Shown: positions 17,198 through 37,200 of the stretch, in pieces | Layout of the letters: each line of letters starts with the position of its first letter | Numbering within the stretch: position 1 is the first letter of the stretch | Source of the DNA: a virus | Lineage: Duplodnaviria; Heunggongvirae; Uroviricota; Caudoviricetes | Virus record (IMG/VR): IMGVR_UViG_2939147180_000005 | Span: 1 to 38,436 of that record | Direction: 5' to 3' (one strand) | DNA length: 38,436 nucleotides | The notes under the pieces: generated by a model | Told to the model about the DNA's origin: nothing | Seen by the model: the letters and a program-made list of their open reading frames with translations, nothing else | Database searches by the model: none | Position numbers and translations under genes: made by a program

Positions 17198-17272
<75 letters not shown>

Positions 17273-17275
17273 ATA

Positions 17276-17351
<76 letters not shown>

Positions 17352-20444: not shown

Positions 20445-23006
20445 TTAATATTTGAATCTTTTGTTTGGTATGATTTTCAGTTTTTTTGCTAAAGCCGTTA
20501 ACTTTCTTAAGCGCCACTTAAGGGTGGACTCAGTTAATCCTTCCCCTGCAATACCTTTAAAAATTTCATAACAAGGCTGACCAGCGTGTATTGCTTTCCA
20601 GAAATCCTCATAGCCGTCATCAAGTATTTGAGCTGTAAGTGCCTCATTAAGCTCTTCAATATTAGATACTGCTAAGTGCCCATCGACTAAAACACCAGCA
20701 TTATTTAAATCAGATTTTGCTTTAAGCGCTTCTTTTCCAGTAGGCTCTTTACCGTTCAGTATCAAGCTGGTAACTTCAATCATTTTAGCGTGAGATGTTA
20801 CAGGGAAGAAAAGCCCTTTATTTCCTGCCCTTAAGCCCGAAATTTTCTTAAGATTTCCTAACTCAGCTGTTGCATCATTATGCGACACATCTGAGGCAAT
20901 AATGCGACCTTCCCCATCAATTTCTATAATTTTTAGGGCAAGTAACCATGACTTTAAAATCGTAGAGTATAATCCCCATGTTTTCTCTGATGCCTCAATA
21001 AAAGGATAAGACTCAGAAAAATACGTGGGTATATCGCTCTCGAAAACTTTTTCTCCAGAAAGAATTTTTTTAAGTAAAGTCTCGACGAGTTGATTGTCTA
21101 AAATTTTTCGGCGTAGATAACCAGCAAGGGTTCCTTGAGAATATATATCCCTAACATTGGTTGGAATTATCCATTCACCACTTTTAACTGCATCAAGCAA
21201 GTCTAAATTCCGCAATTCCTTAACGAGATTAAATGCGTAACCTTCCCTTACATTTAGGTTTTCCGTTATTTTTGTAATTGTCAGCTTTCTCATTGTTATC
21301 AGTTTATGAAACTGGGATATAACAGAGCTTGGATACATTCTATAAATAACCAGCAGTCTAAATTCAGGAAGCTTTTGGTAGACAAGATATTCTTTGAAAA
21401 CATCGTTATAAGTATCATAGGTAGAACCACTCAAGCGTACCAATCTGTAAGCTGTTAACTTATCGAGGACTTTTACAAGCATTGGGTCTTCGTCAAATTG
21501 GTATTGAAGCTCATTGAAATCTGCTGGTAGCTTAGCTGCAATCTTAACTAGATAATCTTTTTCAATCTCATCCAAACCTTCAAGCTCTTCTTCAAAAAGG
21601 TCGTTCAGTTTTAAGCCCGCACTGATTAAATCCCTCTGAGAGTCACCTTTTCGAGTGAGTTTTAAAACATGAGCTATCGTTCTCTTTAAAAGCCAAGGAA
21701 AACCCTGCGCAAATTCAATAATATAGGGTAGTATTTCTTTACTGAGAATATTAGAGTTATTTTCATTTATTTTTTCTAAAAGAAGTATTGATTCTTTGTT
21801 TTCAAAATCCGGAAGAGTAAAGCTTTTCGATAGCTGATTAATTCTATTAAGAGAAACTTTACTGTTGTCATAGGTTGTTAGCTGATCATTTTTACGCGCA
21901 AACACTATGTATACACCACCACGAAGCTTTGTTATTGAGTTCGCAATGTATTCATAGCAATCGAAAATGTCAGGATTCGAGAATGTAGATTCAAATTGGT
22001 CAACAAAGAAAACTGCCTTTTGGCCATTTAGTGAAAGTTGCAAGTCTTTCAGTTGTTCATCAAGTTCTATAAAATTAGTCGCAATAATGCTGCTTTGGGT
22101 AAACCTCTGAACAAGATAAAAAACATCATATATTGTTTTTACATCCCTTGAGTCATGTAATTCAGTAATAACCCCATCCATTGAGAGCTTGTTTTCTAAA
22201 AAGGATACAAGAGAGCTTTTTCCTACTCCAGAGCGACTTTTTATCTGAAGAACATGTGGTAGCTCATTATGTTTGATGTGAGAAAGAAGTTCACCTATGA
22301 ATTCAGTCCTGCCAACGAACACAGTTGGCCCTGCAGGTAGCCTATAGTCAGCCCATTCAGTCCCAACAGTTAATCCTCGAACTATTTCACGCTTTACTTG
22401 AGGCATTTCGTCAACTATTTTTTTCTTGCTAGGCATAATGAAATCCAAACCAGCAAGTTCTGAAATCCCTATTTTTAAATTTTCCAAAAATCTTTCATCA
22501 TCAATTTGGCTGCCACTTTTATTGAATACCACAAAATTTGATGGCGTTCCTGAATTTACCTCTTTTAAAATAAATAACTTATACAACCCCGTATCAGTCT
22601 TGAGAATGTTTGGGGCCACAAGGTCATAACCTTTAATTTCCTTATGTAGAGATGTTTCAGTCGGCAAATGCAAAGTCGCAGTTATTTGGTTATAAAGTTC
22701 CTTTCCTACCTTTGTCGTTAACCCCATATTTTCGACAGTTCGAAAATAATCTTCCGCCTCCGGTGTTAATGGTGATAATGACAGAAATAATCCATGCACC
22801 TTTTTTTCCAGAAGACCTAGCGGCAAAAGCTTTCCAACGAACGCAGCAACTGTTTGTCCACTCATGCTTTTGCTGTGTGCTTTAGCTTCGCCAATAATCT
22901 TTTGGCCAGTTGCTCTAGAGAATCCTTCAATGTCGTACTCTAAACTAGATTCTTTTTTCCTTAACTCAATGTCGTATCCAGAGCCTTCCAAGTATTCTTT
23001 TAACAA
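20445..23006 (-). CDS. Mrr-like PD-(D/E)xK nuclease fused to a STAND-type P-loop NTPase with a C-terminal helical domain; candidate antiphage defence protein
   Basis: 853-aa ORF, AT-rich. N-terminus …YDIEG…IIGEAKAHSK (D…ExK); P-loop HVLQIKSRSGVGKSSL; Walker B AVFFVDQFE; GxP-like AQGFPWLL; ~400-aa C-terminal region without recognised motifs. Start is TTG at 23006; no upstream ATG. Confidence 0.6.
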   Translation of the reverse strand: MLKEYLEGSGYDIELRKKESSLEYDIEGFSRATGQKIIGEAKAHSKSMSGQTVAAFVGKLLPLGLLEKKVHGLFLSLSPLTPEAEDYFRTVENMGLTTKVGKELYNQITATLHLPTETSLHKEIKGYDLVAPNILKTDTGLYKLFILKEVNSGTPSNFVVFNKSGSQIDDERFLENLKIGISELAGLDFIMPSKKKIVDEMPQVKREIVRGLTVGTEWADYRLPAGPTVFVGRTEFIGELLSHIKHNELPHVLQIKSRSGVGKSSLVSFLENKLSMDGVITELHDSRDVKTIYDVFYLVQRFTQSSIIATNFIELDEQLKDLQLSLNGQKAVFFVDQFESTFSNPDIFDCYEYIANSITKLRGGVYIVFARKNDQLTTYDNSKVSLNRINQLSKSFTLPDFENKESILLLEKINENNSNILSKEILPYIIEFAQGFPWLLKRTIAHVLKLTRKGDSQRDLISAGLKLNDLFEEELEGLDEIEKDYLVKIAAKLPADFNELQYQFDEDPMLVKVLDKLTAYRLVRLSGSTYDTYNDVFKEYLVYQKLPEFRLLVIYRMYPSSVISQFHKLITMRKLTITKITENLNVREGYAFNLVKELRNLDLLDAVKSGEWIIPTNVRDIYSQGTLAGYLRRKILDNQLVETLLKKILSGEKVFESDIPTYFSESYPFIEASEKTWGLYSTILKSWLLALKIIEIDGEGRIIASDVSHNDATAELGNLKKISGLRAGNKGLFFPVTSHAKMIEVTSLILNGKEPTGKEALKAKSDLNNAGVLVDGHLAVSNIEELNEALTAQILDDGYEDFWKAIHAGQPCYEIFKGIAGEGLTESTLKWRLRKLTALAKKLKIIPNKRFKY

Positions 23007-23350: not shown

Positions 23351-24556
23351 CTGTGAGTTCAATCAGTGGATGCAACGCTATCCTTAATCAAGGGGGACGT
23401 TGCCATGAAACGAAGAACTCGGATTAACTACACGCCAGAGCAGAAGGCAATTATCTGGGACAGATATAAGCAAGGTGATTCTCTCCATGATATCGCCAGA
23501 ATGTTCGACAGATATCATTCTTCCATTATGCCCACTATCCACCAGACAGGGAGCTACCGTCCTCCCGTGCGAAAACGGTACCGATTAGCGCTTTCGCTTG
23601 ATAAAAGAGAGGAGATATCCAGAGGAGTGGTAGCAAAACTCAGTATCAGGGACATCGCCGCCAAATTATCAAAAGCGCCTTCAACGATTAGCCGCGAGGT
23701 CAGGAGGCACGGAGGTGCCAAACAATACCGTGCAGCAAAAGCCGATACTGCTGCATGGGAAAATGCTCTGAGACCAAAACCTTGCAAGCTAATTGAAAGC
23801 CCACATTGTGTAAAATCATTGCAGAGAAGATGCATCAGGACTAGTCGCCGGAACAGATCGCCGGCTGGCTGAAACGCTGTTATCCGGATAATCAGGAAAT
23901 GCATGTGTCACACGAAACGATTTATAAAACGCTTTTTATACAAACCCGGGGTGCATTAAAAAAAGAACTGCAGCAATGCCTCAGAAGCGGAAGAGCGGTT
24001 CGTAGATCCAGAACATCATCGCTTAAAGGGAAAGGGTTAGGGTCAATCCCAGATACGATACCAATAAGCGAAAGGCCACCTGAAGTTGCAGACAGAGCCA
24101 TACCGTGTCACTGGGAAGGTGACCTGATCCAGTGCTCGAAAAACTCCTTTATCGTCACCCTCGTAGAACGCCATTCCCGCTTTGTTATGCTGGCAAAAAT
24201 CAGAGACAACAAGACCATAACGGTTATATCTGCACTCATCAGACAAGCCCGGGAATTACCTGTTGAGCTTTATAAAACACTAACATGGGACCGGGGCGCT
24301 GAAATGACCAGCCATACCCGGTTTACTGTAGCGACAGATATTCAGATTTATTTCTGTGATCATCAATCTCCATGGCAACGCGGCTCAAATGAAAATACAA
24401 ACAGATTACTCAGACAGTATTTTCCAAAAGGAACTGACTTATCAGTTCACACAGTGTTGCCAGACAGCTCAACGAGCGGCCAAGAAAAACGCTAGACTAC
24501 GAATCACCCGCAGAACGGTTCAATAAGTGTCTTGCGTCCATCAGTTTAACTCACAG
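23351..24556 (+). mobile_element. IS30-family insertion sequence with decayed transposase
   Basis: Imperfect terminal inverted repeats CTGTGAGTTCAATCAGTGGATGCAACGC (23351-) and CTGTGAGTTAAACTGA on the opposite strand (-24556); internal ORFs are homologous to IS30 transposase. Confidence 0.7.
23366..24495 (+). pseudogene. IS30-family transposase, disrupted by a frameshift near 23806-23810, an in-frame TAG at 23842-23844 and a C-terminal frameshift
   Basis: N-terminal HTH part (23366-23872) and DDE catalytic part (23899-24495, …HWEGDL…TWDRG…QSPWQRGSNENTN…) are in different frames; the bridging frame reads …KIIAEKMHQD*SPEQIAGWL… where IS30 has Trp. Confidence 0.75.
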
Positions 24557-24689
24557 CGAAAAGCAGAAGTTCAAAATTTTTCATAACGACTGATGAGAAC
24601 AACTCCAATTATCAAGTTTACTGGTACCTCTGCCAAGCGTACTTAGAGGTCTATGTCTAAACCACCCGCCATGCAGGTGGTTGATTTAC

Positions 24690-26294
24690 CTAATTAGGCC
24701 TTGCTTGAATCGCAGACTCTATAGCTTCTCGGAATTCCGGAGCATCACTTCTTAATCGATAATCATCAAGTGTATTGAATATTTCTAGAAGTTCTTTACG
24801 ATAATACGGCGATGCCAAATTACCTTCGCCTCTAGTTGTGAAAATTAATAATGAGTCAGCGACGTCTTTTAATTTTTTATTCCTTTTCAATCTAATGTAA
24901 CAAGACACAATTATACCAAGAATATCTTTCCTAGATTTCAAAGTGAGTTTTGAATTAGGCAAAACCAACTCCAACATAGCACCAAGTAATTTGGTAGCCT
25001 CTTTTGAAATATAATGAAGATCGAAATTTTCTGTTTCTTTATTTTCTTGAAGGATGTCCCTTTCATCTATCCATTCGCATTGTTCTGCCCAATTTATAGC
25101 GATGCTAAATAAATGACAGAGAAGGAAGTGAAAAGGTGTTTCCCATTCACCACTATATTCATTCGACTGCCTATTCATATTCTTTATGATTTTCTTTGCA
25201 AAATGTGTATAGTAATGCAGCCATAAATGATCCTGAAGCCCCTGATGAATACCTTCATGAACCATGATTTCAAACAGCGTGATCCCAGAGTAAATAGGAC
25301 ATTTATACTTCGAAACATCTGAATAAGAACCTAAAGATTTATTAAGTGTAGCAATAATTTTTTCATCTTCATCTAACCTCCAGTAGATATATTCACCGAT
25401 GTCACGGTATATTGCTAAATCAGCCGCAAACTTAGCATTGGAAAAGAAAAAATGTAATATACGATTGTTTTTCGGGATCAACAAACGATGCCCTCGACTA
25501 ACGTTAAGATTATTTTTAAGCTCAACATATAGACGACTGTTAGGTGAATCTAGTAATGCACTGATAAAATTAGAAGTAAAGTCAGAACGAACTATTGGTT
25601 CGATCTTGATTAACTCAAGGCAGAGGGATGGGTGCGCAAGTGCAAAGTGATTGGTAAGTTCAGGTGATGAGACAATATTTAATAATGCTTCATGTGCATA
25701 TTCGGCAGCAGTCTCGCGATTAGAGATGCGGAGATTGTTAGCTATCTTATCACAAAGTCGATTCTTCACCGGACTATCAATTATTGATATCAACTTTTCT
25801 AGTTGAGGTGCCAACAATTGTGCCAGATCATCGTATCGTTTAGTAAGGTGCAAATTTTCCACTAACTCTAGAAATATTCCTGTTCTTCCAACTGAAAGTT
25901 TAGGTTTTTTTAAGCGAAATAAAATGTAAATAGCAACTGCGAGTGATATCAGGTATACGGCACTTGAACTATCTAATCCCCATTTCCAGGGGCCAAAACT
26001 AAAATATAAGTCTAGTGATTTTAAAGCTGGTGCAAACACCAAATAATTGCTTAGTAAGAATGCGAAACCAACAATTGCCCAATCCCACCACGCCAGGCAG
26101 AACCTCAAACGTAGTCGAGCGTTTGGAGTAATAAGGGCCCATACGGCAGCAATAACGCCCAGTATGGTAAGTAGACTTGAAGTATCAATTTTGGTTGGCG
26201 GTGTCATAATTTCTCTTGTAATCATGGTTTGATGTACATCGGAATGGCTTAACATGATAAGGCTCTTTGTATTATAAATCAGAACATTATGCAC
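24690..26294 (-). CDS. Membrane-anchored protein of unknown function (N-terminal TM helices plus ~430-aa cytoplasmic domain)
   Basis: 534-aa AT-rich ORF; hydrophobic helices in …LLTILGVIAAVWALI… / …WAIVGFAFLLSNYLVFAPAL… / …VYLISLAVAIYILF…; start ambiguous (GTG 26294, ATG 26255, or ATG 26207 with AAGAGA RBS). Confidence 0.6.
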   Translation of the reverse strand: MHNVLIYNTKSLIMLSHSDVHQTMITREIMTPPTKIDTSSLLTILGVIAAVWALITPNARLRLRFCLAWWDWAIVGFAFLLSNYLVFAPALKSLDLYFSFGPWKWGLDSSSAVYLISLAVAIYILFRLKKPKLSVGRTGIFLELVENLHLTKRYDDLAQLLAPQLEKLISIIDSPVKNRLCDKIANNLRISNRETAAEYAHEALLNIVSSPELTNHFALAHPSLCLELIKIEPIVRSDFTSNFISALLDSPNSRLYVELKNNLNVSRGHRLLIPKNNRILHFFFSNAKFAADLAIYRDIGEYIYWRLDEDEKIIATLNKSLGSYSDVSKYKCPIYSGITLFEIMVHEGIHQGLQDHLWLHYYTHFAKKIIKNMNRQSNEYSGEWETPFHFLLCHLFSIAINWAEQCEWIDERDILQENKETENFDLHYISKEATKLLGAMLELVLPNSKLTLKSRKDILGIIVSCYIRLKRNKKLKDVADSLLIFTTRGEGNLASPYYRKELLEIFNTLDDYRLRSDAPEFREAIESAIQARPN

Positions 26295-26576
26295 ACGGTT
26301 AACAATACCCTCAAAATGGCATTAATTAAATGGACACTACTTGTCCACTCAGTTTTTTTAGTCGGCTTTTTCCGACTAACGTTTGGATGTCCTATTGAAA
26401 TTACGCGCCTTACATGAGCAACACTGCAACTGCATGTTTATCATAGGGATTGTGCTAATCAAATTACTGAAGCTTAAGGTCCGCCCCTGGCACAAAACAG
26501 ACAACCACGCTAGCCGTATCCTGTGCCATGAAACTGTCAATTCACATATGAATTAGTGGTCTTTAATCTCGTCACT

Positions 26577-26993
26577 TCAATAAATACCAACATTCCCCTG
26601 ATAAAATGCTAATACACGCTGCATAACTTCACTCTTCCGGCACTCGCGACAAATTATGTTCTGACACCTGTCGTAGCGGCGTATTTCTCCGTCTGGTAAT
26701 GACCAGATAAGGTCAGGATCAACCATAACCGGTTCCTTCGACTTTGCCCTCGAGAGTTTTTTGCGGGCGTTTTGCCAGTCTTGACGTGCCTGCTCAGACG
26801 GAAATAACCCATAGCCAGAGTTGTATACGTCACCACTCGAAACCAGCTCTTTGGCGAGAATACTTATCAGATATCTGGTTGCCCCTGTTTTAGCTTCCAG
26901 TTGTCGTAACGTCTCTCGCCCGCTCTGGCGTACGAGATCAACAATCTGCCCTTTAATTTTTTCTCGCTCTTCCTGTGTTAATACTTTTGCCAT
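26577..26993 (-). CDS. Hypothetical protein, possible DNA-binding
   Basis: Start at MAKVLTQEEREK… with AGGGGAGGG RBS; C-terminal CQNIICRECRK cysteine cluster. Confidence 0.5.
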   Translation of the reverse strand: MAKVLTQEEREKIKGQIVDLVRQSGRETLRQLEAKTGATRYLISILAKELVSSGDVYNSGYGLFPSEQARQDWQNARKKLSRAKSKEPVMVDPDLIWSLPDGEIRRYDRCQNIICRECRKSEVMQRVLAFYQGNVGIY

Positions 26994-27009
26994 AAGCCCT
27001 CCCCTGGAA

Positions 27010-27735
27010 TCACTTTTCCGACACAATACGACTGGAGGAATCGACAATCTGACGGACAATGTCCTGGTGCTTGTTCAGCTCACGCAGCGCGGCGCAGACT
27101 CGCTCCCACTTCTGGACATGACTTTTCGCCCGGCGCAGTTCGCGGTTTGCCATTTGCAGCGATGGTAAAATCAGGTCATTGGCTCGCGTTTCAGTGAACG
27201 ATGGTAGTGACTGCACAATGTCCCCCACAGTATCTGTTTTAATTTCTTCCTGTGTTGCCGCTTCCTGTACTGGTAACGCAACACCGGCTGGCTGAGGAAA
27301 GCCTTTACCAGGTGTTTTAACTACCGATACAACTTTCGGCTCTGCTGGTAAATTACCGTCCGGCAGGCAGTAATGAAATTTACCGTTCTGATTTACGCGA
27401 ATCAGACGACCTTTGCTGATGGCCATAGCCAGCGATGAGTTCACCCTGCGGGAAGTAATTCTGAATATCAGTGCAAGTTCATCAGCCGCTTTAGGGCCAT
27501 GCTGTTCAATCGCCTCGATCAGCATTTGCGCTGTCACTTTAGAAGCCTGTGCCACAGATGCGTTTTCGTCGGTTTGAGTCAACCACCACATCGGGCCCTT
27601 GTTATCAGCTTCCCCGCGACGCTTCAGTTTCCACAGCTCGTTAATCGCCTCATCCCGGGTCATTCCCAGACGTGCTGCCACTTCCTGGGAAGAGGCTTTT
27701 CCCATTGCTTTCAGTGCGTCAAAAACGGTCTCCAT
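27010..27735 (-). CDS. Prophage protein downstream of the DnaC-like gene (YdaW/DUF1627-like)
   Basis: Start METVFDALKAMGK… with GGGAGG RBS; N-terminal HTH-like region; family from memory. Confidence 0.45.
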   Translation of the reverse strand: METVFDALKAMGKASSQEVAARLGMTRDEAINELWKLKRRGEADNKGPMWWLTQTDENASVAQASKVTAQMLIEAIEQHGPKAADELALIFRITSRRVNSSLAMAISKGRLIRVNQNGKFHYCLPDGNLPAEPKVVSVVKTPGKGFPQPAGVALPVQEAATQEEIKTDTVGDIVQSLPSFTETRANDLILPSLQMANRELRRAKSHVQKWERVCAALRELNKHQDIVRQIVDSSSRIVSEK

Positions 27736-28504
27736 TAAAATTTCCTCCCGGTAAAAATTGCTTCTCAATTCCTGGCTGACCAACATTCGGGCGCCAGCTC
27801 TCCCAGTTAAAATTCACCCATCGCCCGCCGTTCATGGTCATCCGATCCATAATCCTCTCGCCGAGCAATGTTTTCATGGCCTCATAGTTCAGGTTTGTCA
27901 GCATCCCCACGCTGCGGATCGACGCTGTCCGGCGATCAACAATCTGGTGCAGTACCACCTGCTCGTTTTTTGTCTCGCACTGAATGCCAATTTCATCAAG
28001 AACCAGCAGATCCACTTCGCACAGTTCCCGCAAAAATTTTTCGCCTGATTGCCCGTCGTCATAGCTGGCGTGTAGAGCACTCATAACATCAGCCACGGTA
28101 ACCACAATCACTGTCTGACCGTTTTTCAGCAGGCGATTCCCGATAGCCGCCGCCAGATGGTTTTTTCCGGTACCAGGTTTTCCGCTGAACGCAAAATTTG
28201 TACACCCGACCATCAGTTCATCGGCGATGGATTTCGCCTGGCTCAACGCGTATCGCTGGCCGTCGTTCTGCACCTGGTAATTCGAAAACGAGCATTTGCG
28301 GTGCAACGGCTGGATGCCGGAGCGATTCAGAATTTTTTCCACCCGCAACTGACGATTCTGGCGATTGATCTCCTCGCAACGTTTCTGGCCTTCTGCAAGT
28401 TGCCACTCGCGCCACTCCGCCACCGTCCTGAATGGCGCGGTTACATGTGACGGGGCCAGTCTGCGGATACGTTCCAGAACGCCGCCTGTCGCAATATTTT
28501 TCAT
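27719..28504 (-). CDS. ydaV: DnaC-like replication protein (helicase loader, AAA+)
   Basis: Walker A …FAFSGKPGTGKNHLAAAIG…, Walker B …LLVLDEIG…; 261 aa. Confidence 0.8.
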   Translation of the reverse strand: MKNIATGGVLERIRRLAPSHVTAPFRTVAEWREWQLAEGQKRCEEINRQNRQLRVEKILNRSGIQPLHRKCSFSNYQVQNDGQRYALSQAKSIADELMVGCTNFAFSGKPGTGKNHLAAAIGNRLLKNGQTVIVVTVADVMSALHASYDDGQSGEKFLRELCEVDLLVLDEIGIQCETKNEQVVLHQIVDRRTASIRSVGMLTNLNYEAMKTLLGERIMDRMTMNGGRWVNFNWESWRPNVGQPGIEKQFLPGGNFNGDRF

Positions 28505-28510
28505 GGTCAG

Positions 28511-29305
28511 TTACCCCCTGAAGCCTGGCGGGATCGCACTGTCCGGCAACGAGACGGTGTTAACCTGTCGGAGCAACGTCTCAGGCCGAACACCTTTCGG
28601 CGCGAACAAGCCCTGGTATTCATTGGCGATGCTGTGTCGAATCACCTGCTCAGGGGTAAAACCCTGCTGGCGGAATTTTTCCAGTTCCCGTATCGCCCCG
28701 TTAGCGCCCTGCTCCGTTCGAATCGGTTTTCGCAATGCCTGCCTGAACTGGACCCACTCATTCCAGAGTGTTTCTGGCAACCAGTCGGGCAGAGCAATGG
28801 CCTCCGGCTCGAATTTTTTAGACGCTCGTTTTTGCCGAGGGGGATTTAGGGGGAGATCAGTATTTTTATCTTCCTCTTCCTCTTCCTCTTCCTCTGGTAA
28901 CGCTTTTTGATCCGTTTGTGTAACGCTGGCAGCGTTACCTTTTCGCTTCAGTTCGCGTATTTTTGTAACTCTCTCGTTTGTAACCGCCCGTTTTTTCGAG
29001 CTTTTTCCGTTATGACGCTCAAAGTTAGGTAGTGAAAGCACTCCATCACTTTCGACCAGCCATCCAACCTGAATTAACGCATCAGCAAAACCAGCCATAA
29101 AAGTGATACGGTCTATTGCACTTTTTGTAACACCTCGAGCGTTACACTCTGCGTTACCATCAATCATTTGTTGATCCGCCCATGCCCAGAATCGAATGAC
29201 CTTCCCTAATGCGGCATCTGGATCAATATTAAGAATCTCAGCAATCCTGAATATTTCCGGTTTATCCGGCGTAATAACTTCGAGCTTTATCCAGTTTGAA
29301 GCCAT
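28511..29305 (-). CDS. ydaU: Replication initiator-like protein (YdaU-like) with poly-Glu linker
   Basis: Start MASNWIKLEV… with AAGGTG RBS; internal EEEEEEEED linker encoded by (TTCCTC)4 on the plus strand; iteron-like palindromes lie in and upstream of the gene. Confidence 0.6.
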   Translation of the reverse strand: MASNWIKLEVITPDKPEIFRIAEILNIDPDAALGKVIRFWAWADQQMIDGNAECNARGVTKSAIDRITFMAGFADALIQVGWLVESDGVLSLPNFERHNGKSSKKRAVTNERVTKIRELKRKGNAASVTQTDQKALPEEEEEEEEDKNTDLPLNPPRQKRASKKFEPEAIALPDWLPETLWNEWVQFRQALRKPIRTEQGANGAIRELEKFRQQGFTPEQVIRHSIANEYQGLFAPKGVRPETLLRQVNTVSLPDSAIPPGFRG

Positions 29306-29383
29306 ATTGTTTTCACCTTGTAACGCTCGCAGCGTTACATTTAACTGATACCGAACAAAACGCTCCGGCACGATTAATTTCAA

Positions 29384-29806
29384 TCAATGCACTACGACAG
29401 AATCGCCGGATGATCCGCCGCGGCTGAAATGCGCTTTCCGGTAAACGGCCTGGACTGCATCATCATGCGCATCAATTGCCGTATTCAGCGCTTCCTGAGC
29501 CGCCAGTAATGCGCGACGTTCCAGGGTGTCAAAAACGCTGAGGCGGTGTCGCAGTTCGCGCGGAAGAATTGCCAGGATTGCAGGAATCAACTTCTGGATT
29601 TTTTCCCTTTGCGCCTTTGTTTCACCTTTTAACCAGCGGTGATAGATGTTTTGCTGATTGTTCCAGTCCTTGCCTGGAGCCAGGGCTAATTCACTCTCCC
29701 CCTGGCGCAAATATTCTTCAGTAATTGCGTTGGCAACCCACGCCTGACCTTTTTCGGCAGCCAGAGCTAACAACACTGATTCAATGTGCTCATGCCTGAT
29801 TTTCAT
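29384..29806 (-). CDS. ydaT: YdaT-like protein (cII-like regulator candidate)
   Basis: Translation from MKIRHEHIESVLLALAAEKGQAWVANAITEEYLRQG… resembles remembered Rac YdaT. Confidence 0.6.
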   Translation of the reverse strand: MKIRHEHIESVLLALAAEKGQAWVANAITEEYLRQGESELALAPGKDWNNQQNIYHRWLKGETKAQREKIQKLIPAILAILPRELRHRLSVFDTLERRALLAAQEALNTAIDAHDDAVQAVYRKAHFSRGGSSGDSVVVH

Positions 29807-30017
29807 GAATACCCTTACCCGCCCGCTTTGCCTTACGATATTTGTCATAGATATTTGAGTCGTACTGAAGCTCCCCGCCAGATGCCTCTTGCAGACGCAT
29901 CGCGCGGCCTTCAGGAACCAGTTCCCCCCATTGAGAAACAGCAGATGGATCAACGCCAGCAGCTTTCGCCACTTTGGCTTTCGTGCCGTAATAATTAATT
30001 ACGTCTGATTTAAACAT
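29790..30017 (-). CDS. ydaS: Cro-like HTH regulator (YdaS-like)
   Basis: Start MFKSDVINYYGTKAKVAKAAGVDPSAVSQW… with GGAGG RBS; HTH motif; divergent from racR across an operator-bearing spacer. Confidence 0.65.
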   Translation of the reverse strand: MFKSDVINYYGTKAKVAKAAGVDPSAVSQWGELVPEGRAMRLQEASGGELQYDSNIYDKYRKAKRAGKGIHENQA

Positions 30018-30026
30018 TGCACCTCC

Positions 30027-30049
30027 AATATTGAGTTTTCTCAATGTTA
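30027..30049. promoter_or_regulatory. Operator-like palindrome in the racR/ydaS divergent control region
   Basis: AATATTGAGTTTTCTCAATGTTA (TTGAG-N-CTCAA dyad) in the 77-bp spacer between the divergent HTH genes. Confidence 0.5.
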
Positions 30050-30094
30050 ATCACTCAAGGAATCTCAAGTCAAGGGTTATTAAGATATCTAAAT

Positions 30095-30502
30095 ATGAAC
30101 GAGAAAACTTTAGGTCAACGAATTAGAGAAAGACGCAAGCAGGTAGGCTTAAGTCAAAGTGGTTTAAGCAAAGCTGCTGGCGTTTCTGGCTCATCAATTT
30201 CATTATGGGAAAGTGACCATACAGCCCCGCGTGGGCAAAATTTGCATAGACTCGCCGAGGTATTACAATGCTCACCGACCTGGATACTGTTCGGTGATGA
30301 GGATAAAACTCCGGATGCCCCAGTTTCACTCAATAGCCCCTTAGACTTATCGGAAGATGAACTGGAGATGTTGCGACTGTATCGCGCACTTCCAAAATCC
30401 GAACAACAAGCACAAATCAGTGAACTCAGCGCTCGAGTTGAGAATTTTAATCGCCTATTTACTGAGCTATTAGAAGCTCGCAAGCGTAACAAACATCAAT
30501 AA
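30095..30502 (+). CDS. racR: Prophage repressor RacR (XRE-family HTH)
   Basis: MNEKTLGQRIRERRKQVGLSQSGLSKAAGVSGSSISLWE… is an XRE HTH; matches remembered RacR. Confidence 0.8.
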   Translation: MNEKTLGQRIRERRKQVGLSQSGLSKAAGVSGSSISLWESDHTAPRGQNLHRLAEVLQCSPTWILFGDEDKTPDAPVSLNSPLDLSEDELEMLRLYRALPKSEQQAQISELSARVENFNRLFTELLEARKRNKHQ

Positions 30503-30555
30503 TCACCCCATCACAAATTTTTAAAGCCTTACATTTCAATGTATTGGCTTTATCT

Positions 30556-30617
30556 TGAGTCAAATATTGAGTTTTCTCATCAAAAACACTTGACCAAAAA
30601 CAATGAGAAAACTAAAT
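30556..30617. promoter_or_regulatory. Second operator cluster (OL-like) downstream of racR
   Basis: AATATTGAGTTTTCTCA at 30564-30580 and its inverted copy AATGAGAAAACT at 30602-30613, plus CTTGAGTCAA at 30554-30563. Confidence 0.45.
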
Positions 30618-30770
30618 TACATCCCATCAAAACACCGCACGGTGTTCTCAGCAAACAGTTCCGCCACCCGGCGTTAAGGGGATACGAAGATGATCGCAGA
30701 TGAAAAGCAGGGACTGGTGTTAAAAATAGATACCAGCCCCCTGAGACATCAGATTGAGAAGTTATACAAA

Positions 30771-30962
30771 CTACTTGTTCCTGCGGTTTTTAACTGTCCG
30801 GATGATTTTATTGATTGTTTTATTAAAGTGTTCACTGAAATCAGAATCTTTGATTTCCGCAAAACAATCACCGCAGATAAAACGATCATTGTCAGAGCCA
30901 GAGTGCTCATCGATCTCAATGTAGCGAGATCGGCAATGAGGACAGCGAAATTTAATATCCAT
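30771..30962 (-). CDS. Small zinc-ribbon protein (possibly YdaF-like)
   Basis: MDIKFRCPHCRSRYIEIDEHSGSDNDRFICGDCFAEIK… has two CxxC pairs; AAGGA RBS; fully antisense to an alternative plus-strand ORF. Confidence 0.45.
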   Translation of the reverse strand: MDIKFRCPHCRSRYIEIDEHSGSDNDRFICGDCFAEIKDSDFSEHFNKTINKIIRTVKNRRNK

Positions 30963-31057
30963 AATTAATATCCTTACAGCAAATTACCATTTGTAAGGAT
31001 ATCACCTCACCTGATGTGGTTAAAAGCAGGTCGTAGGCTCCACGATACGGAGCAACT

Positions 31058-31255
31058 ATGAAGCCAATTCCCCCAGCGTTAAGGGAAAATGAGGTCAACA
31101 TGGATACTATCGATCTTAGCAACAACGAATCCCTGGTGTGTGGCGTGTTCCCCAACCAGGATGGAACGTTCACCGCCATGACGTATACCAAAAGCAAAAC
31201 GTTTAAAACCGAAGTTGGCGCGCGTCGCTGGTTGGAGAAGTACACAGTAAGCTAA
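31058..31255 (+). CDS. Small protein (YdaG-like); alternative start at 31100 (MDTIDL…)
   Basis: GGAG RBS before ATG 31058 and GAGG before ATG 31100. Confidence 0.45.
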   Translation: MKPIPPALRENEVNMDTIDLSNNESLVCGVFPNQDGTFTAMTYTKSKTFKTEVGARRWLEKYTVS

Positions 31256-31707
31256 CGATTAAAACGTCTGCTCCTACTGTTCCAGAATAACTTCATAAAG
31301 TGGGAGTATTTTTCGGTGACGAGATAATAAGAACAGTTTGCGCCATCACTCTGATGTTGAATGATGCCCTTCCGTTCTAATTTTTTCATAACCGGGTTAC
31401 GGCAAGGAGAAGTGATAATAAGATTTCCTGTTTTAAGGAAATCTTTAAATACAGCGATTTCTTTCTCAGATAAACGAAGCAATACTCGTTGCTCTGGTAG
31501 CAATGAATAATGTTTTTGAATATGTGCTCGCAATCTTGAGAAGGAAATGGCAACCACGAAAGAAAAGGCAAAAACTATAATCTGAAAGAGCCAGGTTATT
31601 TCAGTATAAGCATTAAATACGACAGCAAACTCTTTCGGTATCAGCCAGAGAGTGAGGCCAAAAATGATAATCGTGTACATAAGTCTTTCGATGTGGCTCT
31701 TTAGCAA
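31252..31707 (-). CDS. sieB: SieB-like superinfection exclusion membrane protein
   Basis: 151-aa ORF with two N-terminal TM helices (…MYTIIIFGLTLWLIP… / …WLFQIIVFAFSFVVAISF…); position between immunity region and kilR. Confidence 0.55.
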   Translation of the reverse strand: MLKSHIERLMYTIIIFGLTLWLIPKEFAVVFNAYTEITWLFQIIVFAFSFVVAISFSRLRAHIQKHYSLLPEQRVLLRLSEKEIAVFKDFLKTGNLIITSPCRNPVMKKLERKGIIQHQSDGANCSYYLVTEKYSHFMKLFWNSRSRRFNR

Positions 31708-32182
31708 AAAGTTTCAACAATGGAGTAAATACATCCAACATTTCAATAACTCTCGACTGTAAGGGTATTGAAATGTTAACACAAGCTCTCGCTGTAGGGG
31801 TATAGCCGAGACCACCGAAGCCCGGAGGTGGTGAAATAAAACCGGGCACAACACGAAGGCGCATTTCCGATATCCATAAAGAGTCGGTCTTGTCTGTTAA
31901 ATATAAATGGTGGGAGTGCGCCTCCGGTTGTGAATAACGACATTGCTGTGTGTAGTCCTGGCGGCATCAGTTTTTTTCTTGAAGTTCGGCTGATGTCCGC
32001 CCTTTTTAAAGTGAATTTTGTGATGCGGTGAATGCGGCTAAGCGCACGTGGCACAGTTAAAAGTCATGTTAGTCCTTATTGGTTTGGGTGGGAAAGCCGA
32101 CTGTAATTGTTAACTGGTTGCAGTCACCTGGAGGCACCAGGCACCGCATCAACAAAGTTCATTTGTAAAAATGGAGATAATT

Positions 32183-32404
32183 ATGATTGCACATCACTTC
32201 GGAACTGATGAAATACCACGTCAGTGTGTGACTCCTGGCGATTATGTTCTTCATGAAGGCCGGACATATATTGCCTCGGCAAACAATATTAAAAAGCGAA
32301 AACTATATATTCGTAACCTGACCACAAAAACATGCATTACTGACCGCATGATTAAAGTCTTCCTCGGTCGTGATGGTTTACCTGTAAAGGCGGAGTCATG
32401 GTGA
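32183..32404 (+). CDS. kilR: KilR, FtsZ-inhibiting killing protein
   Basis: [73 protein letters not shown] matches remembered KilR; GGAG RBS. Confidence 0.8.
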
Positions 32405-32574
32405 TGACTAAGAAAATAAAATGTGCTTACCACCTTTGCAAAAAAGACGTTGAAGAAAGCAAAGCTATTGAAAGAATGCTTCACTTCATGCACGGGGTTT
32501 TATCAAAAGACGAACCGAGAAAATATTGCAGTGAAGCTTGTGCCGAAAAAGACCAGATGGCACATGAACTTTAA
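32404..32574 (+). CDS. ydaE: YdaE-like small Cys-rich protein
   Basis: 56 aa, [56 protein letters not shown]; start overlaps kilR stop (TGATG); below the ORF-track cut-off. Confidence 0.75.
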   Translation: MTKKIKCAYHLCKKDVEESKAIERMLHFMHGVLSKDEPRKYCSEACAEKDQMAHEL

Positions 32575-32648
32575 TTAATTGACTATTCGAAACTGAATTT
32601 ATGCCAGAAATGGCAGGTATTCGCTCAACCTTAATTAAGGAGAAAAAC

Positions 32649-32924
32649 ATGATTACCAATTATGAAGCCACTGTTGTAACTACCGATGACATTGTTCACG
32701 AGGTGAATCTGGAAGGAAAGCGCATTGGCTACGTAATTAAAACAGAAAATAAAGAAACCCCATTCACTGTGGTTGATATCGATGGTCCATCAGGCAACGT
32801 AAAAACACTTGATGAAGGTGTCAAAAAAATGTGCCTGGTGCATATCGGAAAGAATCTGCCCGCAGAAAAAAAAGCCGAATTTCTGGCAACTCTAATTGCA
32901 ATGAAATTAAAAGGTGAAATCTGA
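32649..32924 (+). CDS. racC: RacC protein
   Basis: Start MITNYEATVVTTDDIVHEVNLEGKRIGYVIK… with AAGGAG RBS; matches remembered RacC. Confidence 0.8.
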   Translation: MITNYEATVVTTDDIVHEVNLEGKRIGYVIKTENKETPFTVVDIDGPSGNVKTLDEGVKKMCLVHIGKNLPAEKKAEFLATLIAMKLKGEI

Positions 32925-33025
32925 AAGAAATAGCCTGCGTATGGCGCAGGCTATGAACAGTGTGTATCCGGCAAGATCATTCACTGAACAAAACGAATTT
33001 TAATCTGAGTTGAGGTTAAAAAACA

Positions 33026-35626
33026 ATGAGCACAAAACCACTCTTCCTGTTACGGAAAGCGAAAAAATCATCCGGTGAACCTGACGTCGTCCTGTGGGCA
33101 AGCAACGATTTTGAATCGACCTGTGCCACTCTGGACTACCTGATCGTTAAGTCAGGTAAAAAACTGAGCAGCTATTTTAAAGCTGTTGCCACGAATTTTC
33201 CTGTCGTTAATGACCTGCCCGCTGAAGGTGAGATCGATTTTACCTGGAGTGAACGCTATCAACTCAGCAAAGACTCCATGACATGGGAACTAAAACCGGG
33301 AGCAGCACCAGACAACGCTCACTATCAAGGCAATACCAACGTCAACGGCGAAGACATGACTGAGATTGAGGAGAATATGCTACTCCCAATTTCTGGCCAG
33401 GAACTGCCCATTCGTTGGCTTGCTCAACACGGCAGCGAAAAACCGGTAACGCACGTTTCACGCGACGGACTCCAGGCATTACACATTGCTCGGGCTGAAG
33501 AACTACCGGCTGTTACTGCCCTGGCTGTTTCCCACAAAACCAGCCTGCTCGACCCGCTGGAAATTCGCGAACTCCACAAACTGGTTCGTGACACTGACAA
33601 AGTTTTCCCTAATCCTGGTAATTCAAACCTGGGACTGATAACTGCTTTTTTCGAAGCATACCTGAACGCTGACTACACCGATCGAGGACTGCTGACAAAA
33701 GAGTGGATGAAGGGTAATCGTGTTTCACACATCACTCGCACGGCTTCCGGTGCTAATGCTGGCGGCGGAAACCTCACCGATCGCGGCGAAGGTTTCGTAC
33801 ACGATCTGACGTCACTGGCGCGCGACGTAGCCACTGGCGTACTGGCCCGTTCAATGGATCTGGACATCTATAACCTTCATCCGGCACACGCTAAACGCAT
33901 TGAGGAAATTATCGCTGAAAATAAACCGCCCTTTTCTGTTTTCCGCGACAAATTCATCACCATGCCTGGCGGGCTGGATTATTCCCGCGCCATCGTGGTT
34001 GCGTCCGTAAAAGAAGCACCAATTGGGATCGAGGTCATCCCCGCGCACGTCACTGAATATCTGAACAAAGTACTGACTGAAACCGATCATGCCAACCCTG
34101 ATCCGGAAATCGTGGATATTGCCTGCGGTCGCTCCTCTGCCCCGATGCCGCAGCGAGTAACAGAAGAAGGAAAACAGGATGATGAAGAAAAACCGCAACC
34201 ATCTGGAACAACGGCAGTTGAACAGGGAGAGGCTGAAACAATGGAACCGGACGCAACTGAACATCATCAGGACACGCAGCCGCTGGATGCTCAGTCACAG
34301 GTAAATTCTGTTGATGCGAAATATCAGGAACTGCGGGCAGAACTCCATGAAGCCCGAAAAAACATTCCATCAAAAGATCCTGTCGATGCCGATAAATTGC
34401 TTGCTGCATCACGTGGTGAATTTGTTGACGGAATTAGCGACCCGAACGATCCGAAATGGGTAAAGGGGATCCAGACTCGCGATTCTGTGTACCAGAACCA
34501 GCCAGAAACGGAAATAATCAGCCCGGATGCGAAACAACCTGAGCCAGTAGTGCAACAGGAACAGGAAATAGTCTGCAATGCCTGCGGTCAGACTGGCGGG
34601 GATAACTGCCCTGACTGTGGTGCGGTGATGGGCGACGCAACATACCAGGAAACATTCGGTGAAGAGAATCAGGTTGAAGCTAAGGAAAAAGATCCGGAGG
34701 AAATGGAAGGCGCTGAACATCCGCACAATGAGAATGCTGGCAGCGATCCGCATCGCGATTGCAGTGATGAAACTGGCGAAGTCGCAGATCCCGTAATCGT
34801 AGAAGACATAGAGCCCGGTATTTATTACGGAATTTCGAATGAGAATTACCACGCGGGTCCCGGTGTCAGTAAGTCTCAGCTCGATGACATTGCTGATACT
34901 CCGGCACTGTATTTGTGGCGTAAAAATGCCCCCGTGGACACTACAAAGACAAAAACGCTCGATTTAGGAACCGCTTTCCACTGCCGGGTACTTGAACCGG
35001 AAGAATTTAGTAACCGCTTTATCGTAGCACCTGAATTTAACCGCCGTACAAACGCCGGAAAAGAAGAAGAGAAAGCGTTTCTGATGGAATGCGCAAGCAC
35101 AGGAAAAACGGTTATCACTGCGGAAGAAGGCCGGAAAATTGAACTCATGTATCAAAGCGTTATGGCTTTGCCGCTGGGGCAATGGCTTGTTGAAAGCGCC
35201 GGACACGCTGAATCATCAATTTACTGGGAAGATCCGGAAACAGGAATTTTGTGTCGGTGCCGTCCGGACAAAATTATTCCTGAATTTCACTGGATCATGG
35301 ACGTGAAAACCACAGCGGATATTCAACGATTCAAAACGTCTTATTACGACTACCGCTATCACGTTCAGGATGCATTCTACAGTGACGGTTATGAAGCACA
35401 GTTTGGTGTGCAGCCAACTTTCGTTTTTCTGGTTGCCAGCACAACTGTTGAATGCGGACGTTATCCGGTTGAGATTTTCATGATGGGCGAAGAAGCAAAA
35501 CTGGCAGGCCAGCAGGAATATCACCGCAATCTGCGGACCCTGGCTGACTGCCTAAATACCGATGAATGGCCAGCTATTAAGACGTTATCACTGCCCCGCT
35601 GGGCTAAGGAGTATGCAAATGACTAA
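33026..35626 (+). CDS. recE: RecE, exonuclease VIII (full length, 866 aa)
   Basis: [30 protein letters not shown]… N-terminus and C-terminal nuclease domain match remembered RecE; GAGG RBS. Confidence 0.9.
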
Positions 35627-36452
35627 GCAACCACCTATCGCAAAAGCCGATCTGCAAAAAACTCAGGGAAACCGTGCACCAGCAGCAGTTAACGATAAGG
35701 ATGTGCTGTGCGTGATTAACAGCCCGGCAATGAAAGCGCAACTGGCAGCAGCTCTGCCACGTCACATGACAGCGGAACGCATGATCCGCATTGCTACAAC
35801 AGAAATCCGTAAAGTACCGGAACTAAGAAACTGTGACTCGACGAGTTTTATCGGTGCCATCGTACAGTGTTCACAGCTCGGACTTGAGCCAGGTAGCGCC
35901 CTCGGTCATGCATATCTGCTACCGTTCGGCAACGGAAAAGCAAAAAACGGTAAGAAGAACGTACAGCTGATCATCGGTTATCGCGGCATGATCGACCTTG
36001 CCCGTCGATCAGGTCAAATCATCAGTCTGTCAGCTCGTGTTGTCCGTGAATGTGATGAATTCAGCTATGAACTTGGCCTTGATGAAAAACTGGTTCATCG
36101 TCCCGGTGAAAACGAAGATGCCCCTATAACCCATGTCTATGCTGTTGCAAAACTGAAAGACGGAGGAGTGCAGTTTGAAGTCATGACCCGCAAACAAGTA
36201 GAAAAAGTTCGCGACACACACAGCAAGGCGGCAAAAAACGCAGCGTCAAAAGGGGCGTCGTCCATCTGGGATGAACACTTTGAAGACATGGCCAAAAAGA
36301 CAGTGATACGAAAACTGTTCAAGTATCTGCCGGTATCTATTGAAATCCAGCGTGCAGTATCGATGGATGGAAAAGAGGTGGAAACAATTAATCCAGACGA
36401 CATATCGGTTATAGCCGGGGAATACAGTGTAATCGATAATCCAGAAGAATAA
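35619..36452 (+). CDS. recT: RecT single-strand annealing protein
   Basis: Start [24 protein letters not shown]… overlaps recE stop (ATGACTAA); matches remembered RecT. Confidence 0.9.
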
Positions 36453-36496
36453 TCCAGCCTGGCGGTGTAATGCACCGCCAACGTGAGATAGTTTTT

Positions 36497-36703
36497 ATGA
36501 CAAAAACTTTGAGATATGACGATGTTAAACCATGTCCGTTTTGTGGTTGTCCATCAGTAACGGTGAAAGACATTTCAGGATATTACCGGGCAAAATGCAA
36601 CGGATGCGAATCCCGAACTGGCTATGGTGGAAGTGAAAAAGAAGCGCTCGAAAGATGGAATAAACGAACCACTGAAAATATTAATGGAGGCGTTCATGTA
36701 TAA
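36497..36703 (+). CDS. ralR: RalR / Lar restriction-alleviation protein
   Basis: MTKTLRYDDVKPCPFCGCPSVTVKDISGYYRAKCNGCESRTGYGGSEKEALERWNKRTT… zinc ribbon; matches remembered Lar. Confidence 0.85.
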   Translation: MTKTLRYDDVKPCPFCGCPSVTVKDISGYYRAKCNGCESRTGYGGSEKEALERWNKRTTENINGGVHV

Positions 36704-36884
36704 AATTACCGCTACAATTGAAAAGGAAGGTGGCACTCCTACTAACTGGACAAGATATTCAAAATCTAAACTAACGAAATCAGAATGCGAAAAAATGCTC
36801 TCAGGTAAAAAAGAAGCAGGCGTTTCCAGAGAGCAGAAAGTAAAACTGATAAATTTTAATTGCGAGAAACTTCAGTCCTCGTGA
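36696..36884 (+). CDS. ydaC: YdaC-like small protein
   Basis: Start MYKITATIEKEGGTPTNWTRYSKSKL… with GGAGG RBS; overlaps ralR stop by 8 nt. Confidence 0.7.
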   Translation: MYKITATIEKEGGTPTNWTRYSKSKLTKSECEKMLSGKKEAGVSREQKVKLINFNCEKLQSS

Positions 36885-36983
36885 ATTGCATTGTATTCAA
36901 ATTAAAACTTCATAGCTGATTATTAATAATCAACATCAGGCGTCAATTTCAGTCTAACATTGGCGCCTGCCAGAGGTGATGCG

Positions 36984-37199
36984 ATGGCACAAGTAATCTT
37001 TAATGAAGAGTGGATGGTTGAATACGGCCTGATGCTTCGCACTGGTCTGGGGGCCAGACAAATTGAAGCATACCGCCAGAACTGTTGGGTGGAGGGCTTC
37101 CACTTCAAACGAGTATCTCCTTTAGGTAAGCCAGACAGCAAACGAGGGATTATCTGGTACAACTATCCAAAGATAAATCAGTTTATCAAAGACTCATGA
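36984..37199 (+). CDS. xisR: Excisionase (XisR / YdaQ-like)
   Basis: Start [35 protein letters not shown]… ; stop 1 nt before the int start. Confidence 0.8.
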
Positions 37200-37200
37200 T

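Follow-up and report, generated by a model that had tools for sequence, protein, structure and literature searches.

An origin of replication that lies inside the gene of its own initiator is a textbook arrangement. In phage lambda, the iterons are 19-bp imperfect inverted repeats within the O gene, which are bound by dimers of the O protein and are situated beside an easily opened tract (PMC7466680). For the Rac prophage, an active origin called oriJ has been reported (PMC3945230; also Potrykus et al. 2000, a reference listed in PMC11014345). Here, we examine a Rac-like prophage of Escherichia coli, represented by a stretch of 38,436 bp (IMG/VR record IMGVR_UViG_2939147180_000005; "the window" below means this whole stretch), in which a series of palindromic sites (dyads) and half-sites, together with a homopurine tract, extends from the spacer preceding a ydaU-like initiator gene into the 5' half of that gene. 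We propose, with a probability of roughly 60%, that the dyads and the purine tract constitute the replication origin of this prophage, situated in and just upstream of its own initiator gene in the manner of lambda. The evidence for this comes from sequence comparison, and the elements on which it bears are the following, with offsets counted from the initiator's ATG.

28511-29305, minus strand: the ydaU-like initiator gene, 264 aa, with its ATG at 29303-29305.
29319-29339, intergenic, -34 to -14 from the ATG: upstream dyad, TGTAACGC-TCGCA-GCGTTACA, directly 5' of the Shine-Dalgarno sequence AAGGTG.
29150-29157, +148: isolated half-site, GGTAACGCA in gene sense, with one mismatch, 12 nt 5' of the middle dyad.
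29126-29146, +159: middle dyad, degenerate, TGTAACGC-TCGAG-GTGTTACA in gene sense, encoding C-N-A-R-G-V-T in a loop of the N-terminal domain.
28965-28984, +321 and +336: two direct half-sites, GGTTACAAAC and AGTTACAAAA in gene sense.
28919-28939, +367: downstream dyad, GTAACGC-TGCCA-GCGTTAC in gene sense, encoding G-N-A-A-S-V-T at the end of the N-terminal domain.
28896-28904, +402: terminal half-site, AGCGTTACC in gene sense (exact octamer at 28897-28904), adjoining the purine tract.
28869-28895, minus (gene) strand, from +410: homopurine tract (GAGGAA)4.5, 27 nt, period 6, 4.5 copies with 100% matches, coding for poly-Glu.
28855-28870: A/T-rich patch of 16 bp with a GATC, GATAAAAATACTGATC in gene sense, adjoining the purine tract.

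The dyads share the form GTAACGC-N5-GCGTTAC, are 19-21 bp long and are present in three copies, at -34, +159 and +367. Their core, GTAACGCT-N3-AGCGTTAC, is perfect at 28920-28938 and 29320-29338 and has two mismatches at 29127-29145. The first-pass annotation of this DNA had reported the two perfect 19-bp palindromes, and both were found exactly; its placement of one within the ydaU-like gene and of the other 15 bp upstream is borne out by the gene coordinates, since with the ATG at 29303-29305 the 29320-29338 dyad ends 15 nt before the start codon. Its list of half-sites was right to within 1 nt, except that the entries at 29127 and 29137 are not separate sites but the arms of the third, degenerate dyad. 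The gene itself accordingly holds two dyads and four half-sites. The half-site at 28965-28972 has one mismatch and its neighbor at 28980-28984 reads GTAAC; GTTACAA occurs four times, always in a single orientation. The start-to-start distances between dyads are 193 and 207 bp, the whole array spreads over ~420 bp, and the sites are not limited to the linker of the protein, one cluster being within the segment that codes for the DNA-binding domain. All six exact GTAACGCT octamers on the two strands of the window are located within 28897-29338 (442 bp). When up to three mismatches are allowed, three dyads were found against 0.11 expected, and 0 of 100 shuffles gave three, which argues against an accumulation by chance.

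These sites are not peculiar to this prophage. A pattern scan using one genome per species yielded 64 loci (62 usable for the dyad count, 63 non-identical genes in the codon alignment) that span the Enterobacterales, Planctomycetes, Verrucomicrobia, Ignavibacteria, Acidobacteria, Burkholderiales and Pseudomonas. Of the 62 usable loci, 38 have the sequence GTAAC-N9-GTTAC in one or both of two intervals, about +148 to +160 and about +337 to +412, in DNA whose GC content ranges from 38 to 68%; the dyad-bearing loci belong to the Enterobacterales, other Pseudomonadota, Planctomycetes, Ignavibacteria and Acidobacteria, and they have the same gene offsets at 40-70% protein identity. Most related loci have a counterpart of the downstream dyad at +337 to +412, and the middle dyad begins at +148 in those relatives that lack the 12-nt duplication. 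The GTAACGC motif is concentrated around the gene start (5-11 per 900 nt, versus 0-4 in the flanks of ~3.5 kb). Two phages, Klebsiella phage ST11-OXA245phi3.2 (52% identity) and the E. coli Stx phage TL-2011b (N-domain identity 66%), have the 19-bp dyad at both +148 and +357, and Pseudomonas phage PAN70 (35% identity) has near-dyads at the same offsets.

The upstream dyad has a more restricted distribution: it is found at -32 to -44 in Shigella/E. coli, Winslowiella, Serratia and Pantoea, and only in enteric loci, whereas the features found family-wide are the pair of in-gene clusters and the purine tract. This distribution bears on an alternative in which the dyads are only autoregulatory operators, through which the initiator throttles its own transcription or translation while the real origin lies elsewhere in the prophage. 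Plasmid Rep proteins do autorepress through inverted repeats, and the upstream dyad, which immediately precedes the Shine-Dalgarno sequence, ends 15 nt from the ATG and is retained in enterics, would suit such a function by its position. Autoregulation alone, however, poorly explains operators that lie 150-400 nt into the gene and adjoin a purine tract at a fixed junction, and the single copy suitably placed for it is the one that is confined to the enterics. Furthermore, a consensus scan for promoters and terminators gave counts at chance level (terminator-like sequences: 2 found versus 2.6 expected), with no promoter-like site near any dyad. The same scan made an antisense terminator-like call at 28920, which we rejected as merely the dyad followed by a short T-run. 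We consider it unlikely that the dyads are operators and nothing else; an autoregulatory role of the upstream dyad alongside an origin role is nonetheless plausible, as the two are not mutually exclusive.

Because both in-gene dyads encode G-N-A-x-x-V-T, the peptide had to be tested as the explanation of the repeat; in its extreme form, this would make the sites a repeated peptide motif (G-N-A-x-S-V-T), or a coincidence, with no function at the DNA level. In the 63-gene alignment, we compared codon choice in the columns of site A with that in other conserved columns encoding the same amino acid in the same proteins. At site A, glycine is encoded by GGT in 44 of 53 cases (83%) versus 55 of 246 (22%) elsewhere (p=1e-16), and valine by GTT in 52 of 61 (85%) versus 22 of 97 (23%; p=4e-15). 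Asparagine is AAC in 54/54 versus 92/124, alanine GCT in 33/46 versus 33/145, and threonine ACA in 34/56 versus 25/108. The synonymous codons are, in other words, frozen only within the site. Moreover, one dyad of the three is non-coding; the junction between the terminal half-site and the purine tract is translated in three different reading frames according to the clade (A-L-P-E/R, V-T-R-E-E and R-N-Q-R-R); and a symmetric A>C / T>G change in the dyad replaces Asn by His on one arm while being silent on the other. The peptide explanation is, on these grounds, scarcely credible.

Among 65 distinct close relatives in IMG/VR, the dyad arms are intact in nearly all (upstream 59, middle 65, downstream 58), whereas the central 5 nt vary freely, with 15, 11 and 16 different forms, respectively. 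As the codons are frozen, the spacers free, the arms altered together, the junction read in three frames and one copy intergenic, selection must act on the DNA; judged by these alignments, the dyads are selected as DNA and not as peptide.

A palindrome retained as nucleic acid could in principle function as RNA, that is, as a hairpin in the ydaT-ydaU mRNA involved in its stability, processing or translational coupling, and the predicted structure does show the upstream palindrome as a hairpin of 9 bp immediately before the Shine-Dalgarno sequence. But the ydaT-ydaU spacer folds no better than shuffled sequences (z = -0.92), and the sequence of the arms is invariant, and identical across the copies in one genome, rather than freely co-varying. 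One-arm changes compatible with G.U pairing amount to only 4 of 73, the isolated and direct half-sites are unable to pair at all, and an Rfam scan of 28300-30100 gave only chance-level eukaryotic matches. A role as RNA hairpins is very improbable.

What the arms do when they change is more informative. Variant clades alter both arms of the dyad together: GTCACGC-N5-GCGTGAC is found in Pseudomonas, Paraburkholderia, Rhodanobacteraceae and other loci, GTTGCGC-N5-GCGCAAC in one planctomycete with eight half-sites, CTAACGC-N5-GCGTTAG in a Pirellula locus and GTTACGC-N5-GCGTAAC in a Rhodoferax locus. At arm position 3 there are 19 both-arm departures across sites. Of the seven GTCACG loci, five make up a single clade in a neighbor-joining tree of the initiator's N-terminal domain from which the site-encoded loop had been left out. 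Where the N-terminal domain is more distant or of another kind, so are the repeats. Phages epsilon15 (L009) and BUCT711 (L006), at ~30% identity, have another repeat, GTCCGCA(T), in two clusters at +54 to +85 and +333 to +375, the second just before a (GAAGA)n purine tract. The YdaU of the K-12 Rac prophage (L010, 2620-3477) has only its C-terminal 143 residues in common with the window initiator (73% identity); BLASTP aligns the two over residues 129-264 only, and the N-domain of K-12 YdaU is a DUF1376 domain, unrelated to that of the window initiator. The K-12 gene has no GTAACGC dyads but instead mid-gene repeats, TGTTCAAAC, at +392 and +425 and inverted at +450, which are candidate iterons of K-12 oriJ. 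Since both the K-12 and the epsilon15 type combine another N-domain with other repeats, the N-domain and the repeats have been exchanged as one unit, and in this comparison the sites travel and co-vary with the initiator N-domain.

Such co-variation is relevant to the identity of the protein that binds the dyads. Palindromes of this size would fit many dimeric regulators, and a binder other than the initiator could be the YdaT/CII-like regulator, the prophage repressor or Cro, or a host protein; ydaT is immediately upstream and the upstream dyad is near its stop codon. The first-pass annotation had offered an operator set for a YdaT-like regulator as one possibility. The footprinted YdaT sites, however, have the form ATGATT/TTGATT-N6-AATCAA (PMC11879457, PMC9986795), to which the dyads are unrelated in sequence. 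One YdaT-box-like site, ACGATTAATTTCAATCAA at 29370-29387, departs at two positions from TTGATT-N6-AATCAA; it overlaps the stop codon of ydaT, some 30 nt ahead of the upstream dyad, and is the only one near the dyads among nine such matches in the whole window (4.2 expected). In five distant loci that retain the dyads, the flanking open reading frames (ORFs) are quite different (such as a long ORF on the downstream side whose start is DnaB-like, or other genes), and the initiator, through its N-domain, is the only gene visibly in common with the window; this comparison was made by inspection of ORF translations, with no family search. The YdaT operator proposal consequently finds no support, the dyads persisting where the neighbors of the gene have been entirely replaced. 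The motif type, in addition, tracks the N-domain clade, and a host factor could be the binder only if it were shared by organisms as far apart as Planctomycetes and E. coli and yet changed in step with a phage protein. We judge another binder to be quite unlikely.

The second component of the proposed origin is the homopurine tract, which is the longest homopurine/homopyrimidine run of the window. A purine run of at least 14 nt is found at +360 to +455 in 36 of the 63 loci, as (GAGAA)n or (GAGGAA)n. The unit depends on the clade, with a 5-nt GAGAA in most phyla, giving R-E-E-K-R-R-E-E, and a 6-nt GAGGAA in enterics, giving poly-Glu; the encoded peptides differ between clades while the strand composition is unchanged. 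In 35 of the 63 loci, a half-site is separated by 1-3 nt from a following purine run of 10 nt or more, and this terminal half-site co-varies with the dyads (GTTAC, GTGAC, GCAAC, GTTAG). Across the aligned loci, the dyads keep their order relative to the purine tract. The initial description of a (TTCCTC)4 repeat encoding a poly-Glu linker was hence correct but incomplete, as the repeat is also a polypurine DNA element conserved throughout the family. A comparison of copy number across strains, which the first-pass annotation had suggested, revealed ~2 to 7 copies of (GAGGAA)n among close E. coli relatives (IMG/VR loci L075-L154); the length of the poly-Glu linker is therefore polymorphic, probably as a result of slippage.

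As to the initiator itself, the match to PHROG 2509, "replication initiation protein," extends along the whole of the 264-residue product (E=1e-90), and the RefSeq product name is "phage replication initiator YdaU family protein." The match to the "O-like" phrog_678 spans residues 79-238 only. Matches to further PHROGs are confined to the N- or the C-terminal half, so that the protein is modular, with an N-terminal domain of about residues 1-120, an acidic linker and a DnaT-like C-terminal domain of about residues 172-264 (28511-28790). Residues ~171-264 align to the C-terminal domain of DnaT (PDB 2ru8, 9zbt), including a near-identical tail, VNTVS-PDS-IPPGFRG, and this alignment suggests that the domain joins the host DnaB/DnaC loading pathway as DnaT does. 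For the N-terminal 135 residues of the window initiator and 21 relatives (22 members), Pfam gave no family, the O-protein family included. The AlphaFold2 model (mean pLDDT 68.8, but 78-95 over most of the N-domain) has helices at 16-25, 29-48, 61-68 and 73-80 and a beta-hairpin at 84-91, and the modeled N-terminal domain looks like a winged helix; residues 49-60, which are encoded by the +148/+159 sites, form a low-confidence loop. A scan of 1.84 billion cluster representatives (clustered at 50% identity) with the N-domain as a single-sequence query gave 6,698 matches at E<=1e-3 and 4,206 at E<=1e-10; by this count, the family is large.

These elements can be assembled into a proposed mechanism. 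The initiator would be the protein that binds the dyads, dimers of it occupying the three dyads via the winged-helix-like N-terminal domain and single subunits the flanking half-sites. The promoter-distal complex would end in the half-site 1-3 nt from the (GAGGAA)n tract, and the tract, as the putative opening site, would together with the neighboring small A/T patch undergo duplex opening or single-strand capture. The DnaT-like C-terminal domain and the DnaC-like YdaV would then bring host DnaB, and the dyad/purine element would in this manner fire replication. Bound at the upstream dyad beside the ribosome-binding site, the initiator may also limit its own synthesis, which is compatible with an origin role. 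The first-pass annotation had likewise supposed that iteron-like sites mark an origin inside the initiator gene, and this supposition has gained considerably from the frozen codons, the free spacers, the intergenic copy, the co-variation with the N-domain, the identical offsets in distant phyla and the purine tract. The cross-phylum conservation at the nucleotide level, the concerted changes of the arms, the self-encoding arrangement and the conserved half-site/purine junction are unusual. A bolder proposal, which we regard as possible but doubtful, is that the dyad-dyad-polypurine unit represents an undescribed and very widespread class of phage origin, in which the initiator's sites are written in the codons of its own DNA-binding domain and a terminal half-site sets the initiator on one strand of an opening element that is not AT-rich.

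Several observations weigh against the interpretation of the locus as an origin. The middle dyad, perfect in 65 of 65 distinct IMG/VR relatives and in L002, L003 and L011, is mutated in the window prophage, where one arm reads GTGTTAC instead of GCGTTAC (the exact minus-strand octamer is at 29138-29145), and the site may be weakened. The duplex-stability profile of 27500-30600 has no marked AT-rich minimum beside the sites and no strong unwinding element; the segment 28844-28884 ranks 8th among the least stable 40-bp windows and is not an outlier. The dyads are dispersed, some 190-230 bp apart, whereas the lambda iterons form a compact array, and there is no conserved helical phasing between the in-gene dyads, which lie 189-264 bp apart across the family. 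A Verrucomicrobia clade with the same N-domain family (L032, L037, L040-L043, L048, L051, L058, L059, L061, L064 and L066) is without clean dyads and usually without the purine tract, only CGTTACA half-sites recurring (2-4 per locus). Finally, our literature search found no published map tying the window allele to origin activity, and the oriJ work was done in K-12, whose N-domain and repeats differ from those of the window.

DnaA boxes (TTATCCACA) do not occur at up to one mismatch in 26296-30297, and their total in the window is at chance level. The literature on oriJ, ydaU and ydaV gave no nucleotide-level origin map, the original oriJ papers being outside the search; the motif strings of the dyads retrieved primers only, and a paper on the replication regions of non-lambdoid Stx phages makes no mention of iterons or origins. 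The study of Potrykus and coworkers reportedly concerned oriJ plasmids.

The 1.1 kb around the sites has matches in 1,519 of 5,426 complete E. coli genomes, most of them at 80-95% identity; coverage of the segment reaches 80% in only 678. The window is 99.98% identical to E. coli NRZ96606 over 10963-38436, and 26292-38436 also matches strain KMi012. The spacer between ydaT and ydaU measures 78 nt, and the genes surrounding the initiator gene are arranged as follows.

30095-30502, divergent: repressor, followed by sieB, kilR, racC, recET, xis and int.
29790-30017, minus strand: cro-like ydaS.
29384-29806, minus strand: ydaT.
27719-28504, minus strand, immediately 3' of the initiator gene: ydaV, a DnaC-like helicase loader (NCBIfam PRK12377, 500 bits, and a DnaC match; Pfam IstB_IS21; PHROG 50).
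After ydaV in gene order, minus strand: a DUF1627 gene, then a DUF977 gene.

Between the replication module and hokD, the segment 20445-26294 resembles defence-type cargo; its features, with coordinates mapped from the NRZ96606 annotation, are these.

20445-23006: NTPase with an nSTAND1 domain.
23405-24593: IS30 remnant.
24690-26294: hypothetical protein of 505-534 residues.

Elsewhere, there is an IS1 copy at 158-926, tRNA-Gly(tcc) and tRNA-Thr(tgt) are encoded at 17198-17351, and the small terminase gene, which IS3 interrupts in NRZ96606, is uninterrupted in the window (10963-10969).

If the proposed origin is real, then the start of replication in a common class of Rac-like E. coli prophages would be narrowed to ~480 bp, and paired GTAACG-N7-CGTTAC dyads followed by a half-site and a purine repeat would provide a sequence rule by which origins could be located in thousands of phages and prophages from different phyla. 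The locus would also be a clean natural example of one DNA stretch selected both as coding sequence and as a putative protein-binding site, in which a change of the dyad forces an amino-acid change (the Asn to His above) in the site's probable reader. Origin-specificity alleles of this sort would bear on which prophages co-replicate or cross-activate, and they are relevant to the toxicity of racR-derepressed modules and to the design of compatible phage-derived replicons.

Of the systems already described, the lambda origin, together with its variants in Stx phages, is the closest in plan. There, as here, the repeats are within the initiator's own coding sequence; the sites are of ~19 bp (extending to 21 bp in the window) with an internal dyad symmetry suited to a dimer; an easily opened tract, for which the purine tract is our candidate, lies promoter-distal; and a modular initiator joins an origin-specific N-domain to a C-domain for recruitment of the helicase loader. 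In both, relatives differ in how many sites they have (PMC7466680), and the swapping of N-domain and repeats as a unit resembles the O/ori specificity of the lambdoid phages. The differences are nonetheless substantial: the N-domain of the window initiator has no detectable similarity to lambda O, its dyads are dispersed over ~420 bp rather than in a compact array of four to six, one cluster is in the segment coding for the DNA-binding domain and one site is outside the gene, the tract is a homopurine repeat that is not clearly AT-rich, and the partner is the DnaC-like YdaV and not lambda P.

Iteron plasmids likewise combine dyads with single half-sites for one initiator, and there too a dyad beside the translation start of the initiator could serve autoregulation; the window, however, is without tandem, phased, direct iterons of 17-22 bp, and its sites are inside the rep gene. 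More speculatively, the DnaA-box and DnaA-trio combination also has a duplex site that a short, constant interval separates from a one-strand repeat of short period, an arrangement that would suit an initiator spreading onto single-stranded DNA, although the period in the window family is 5 or 6 nt instead of 3 and the protein is unrelated. The K-12 Rac prophage with its oriJ is of the same prophage type as the window, with the same gene order (racR, ydaS, ydaT, ydaU, ydaV) and initiator C-terminal domains that are 73% identical, but it has the DUF1376 N-domain and TGTTCAAAC repeats in place of GTAACGC dyads; as both the N-domain and the repeats differ, the window would therefore carry a different origin-specificity allele.

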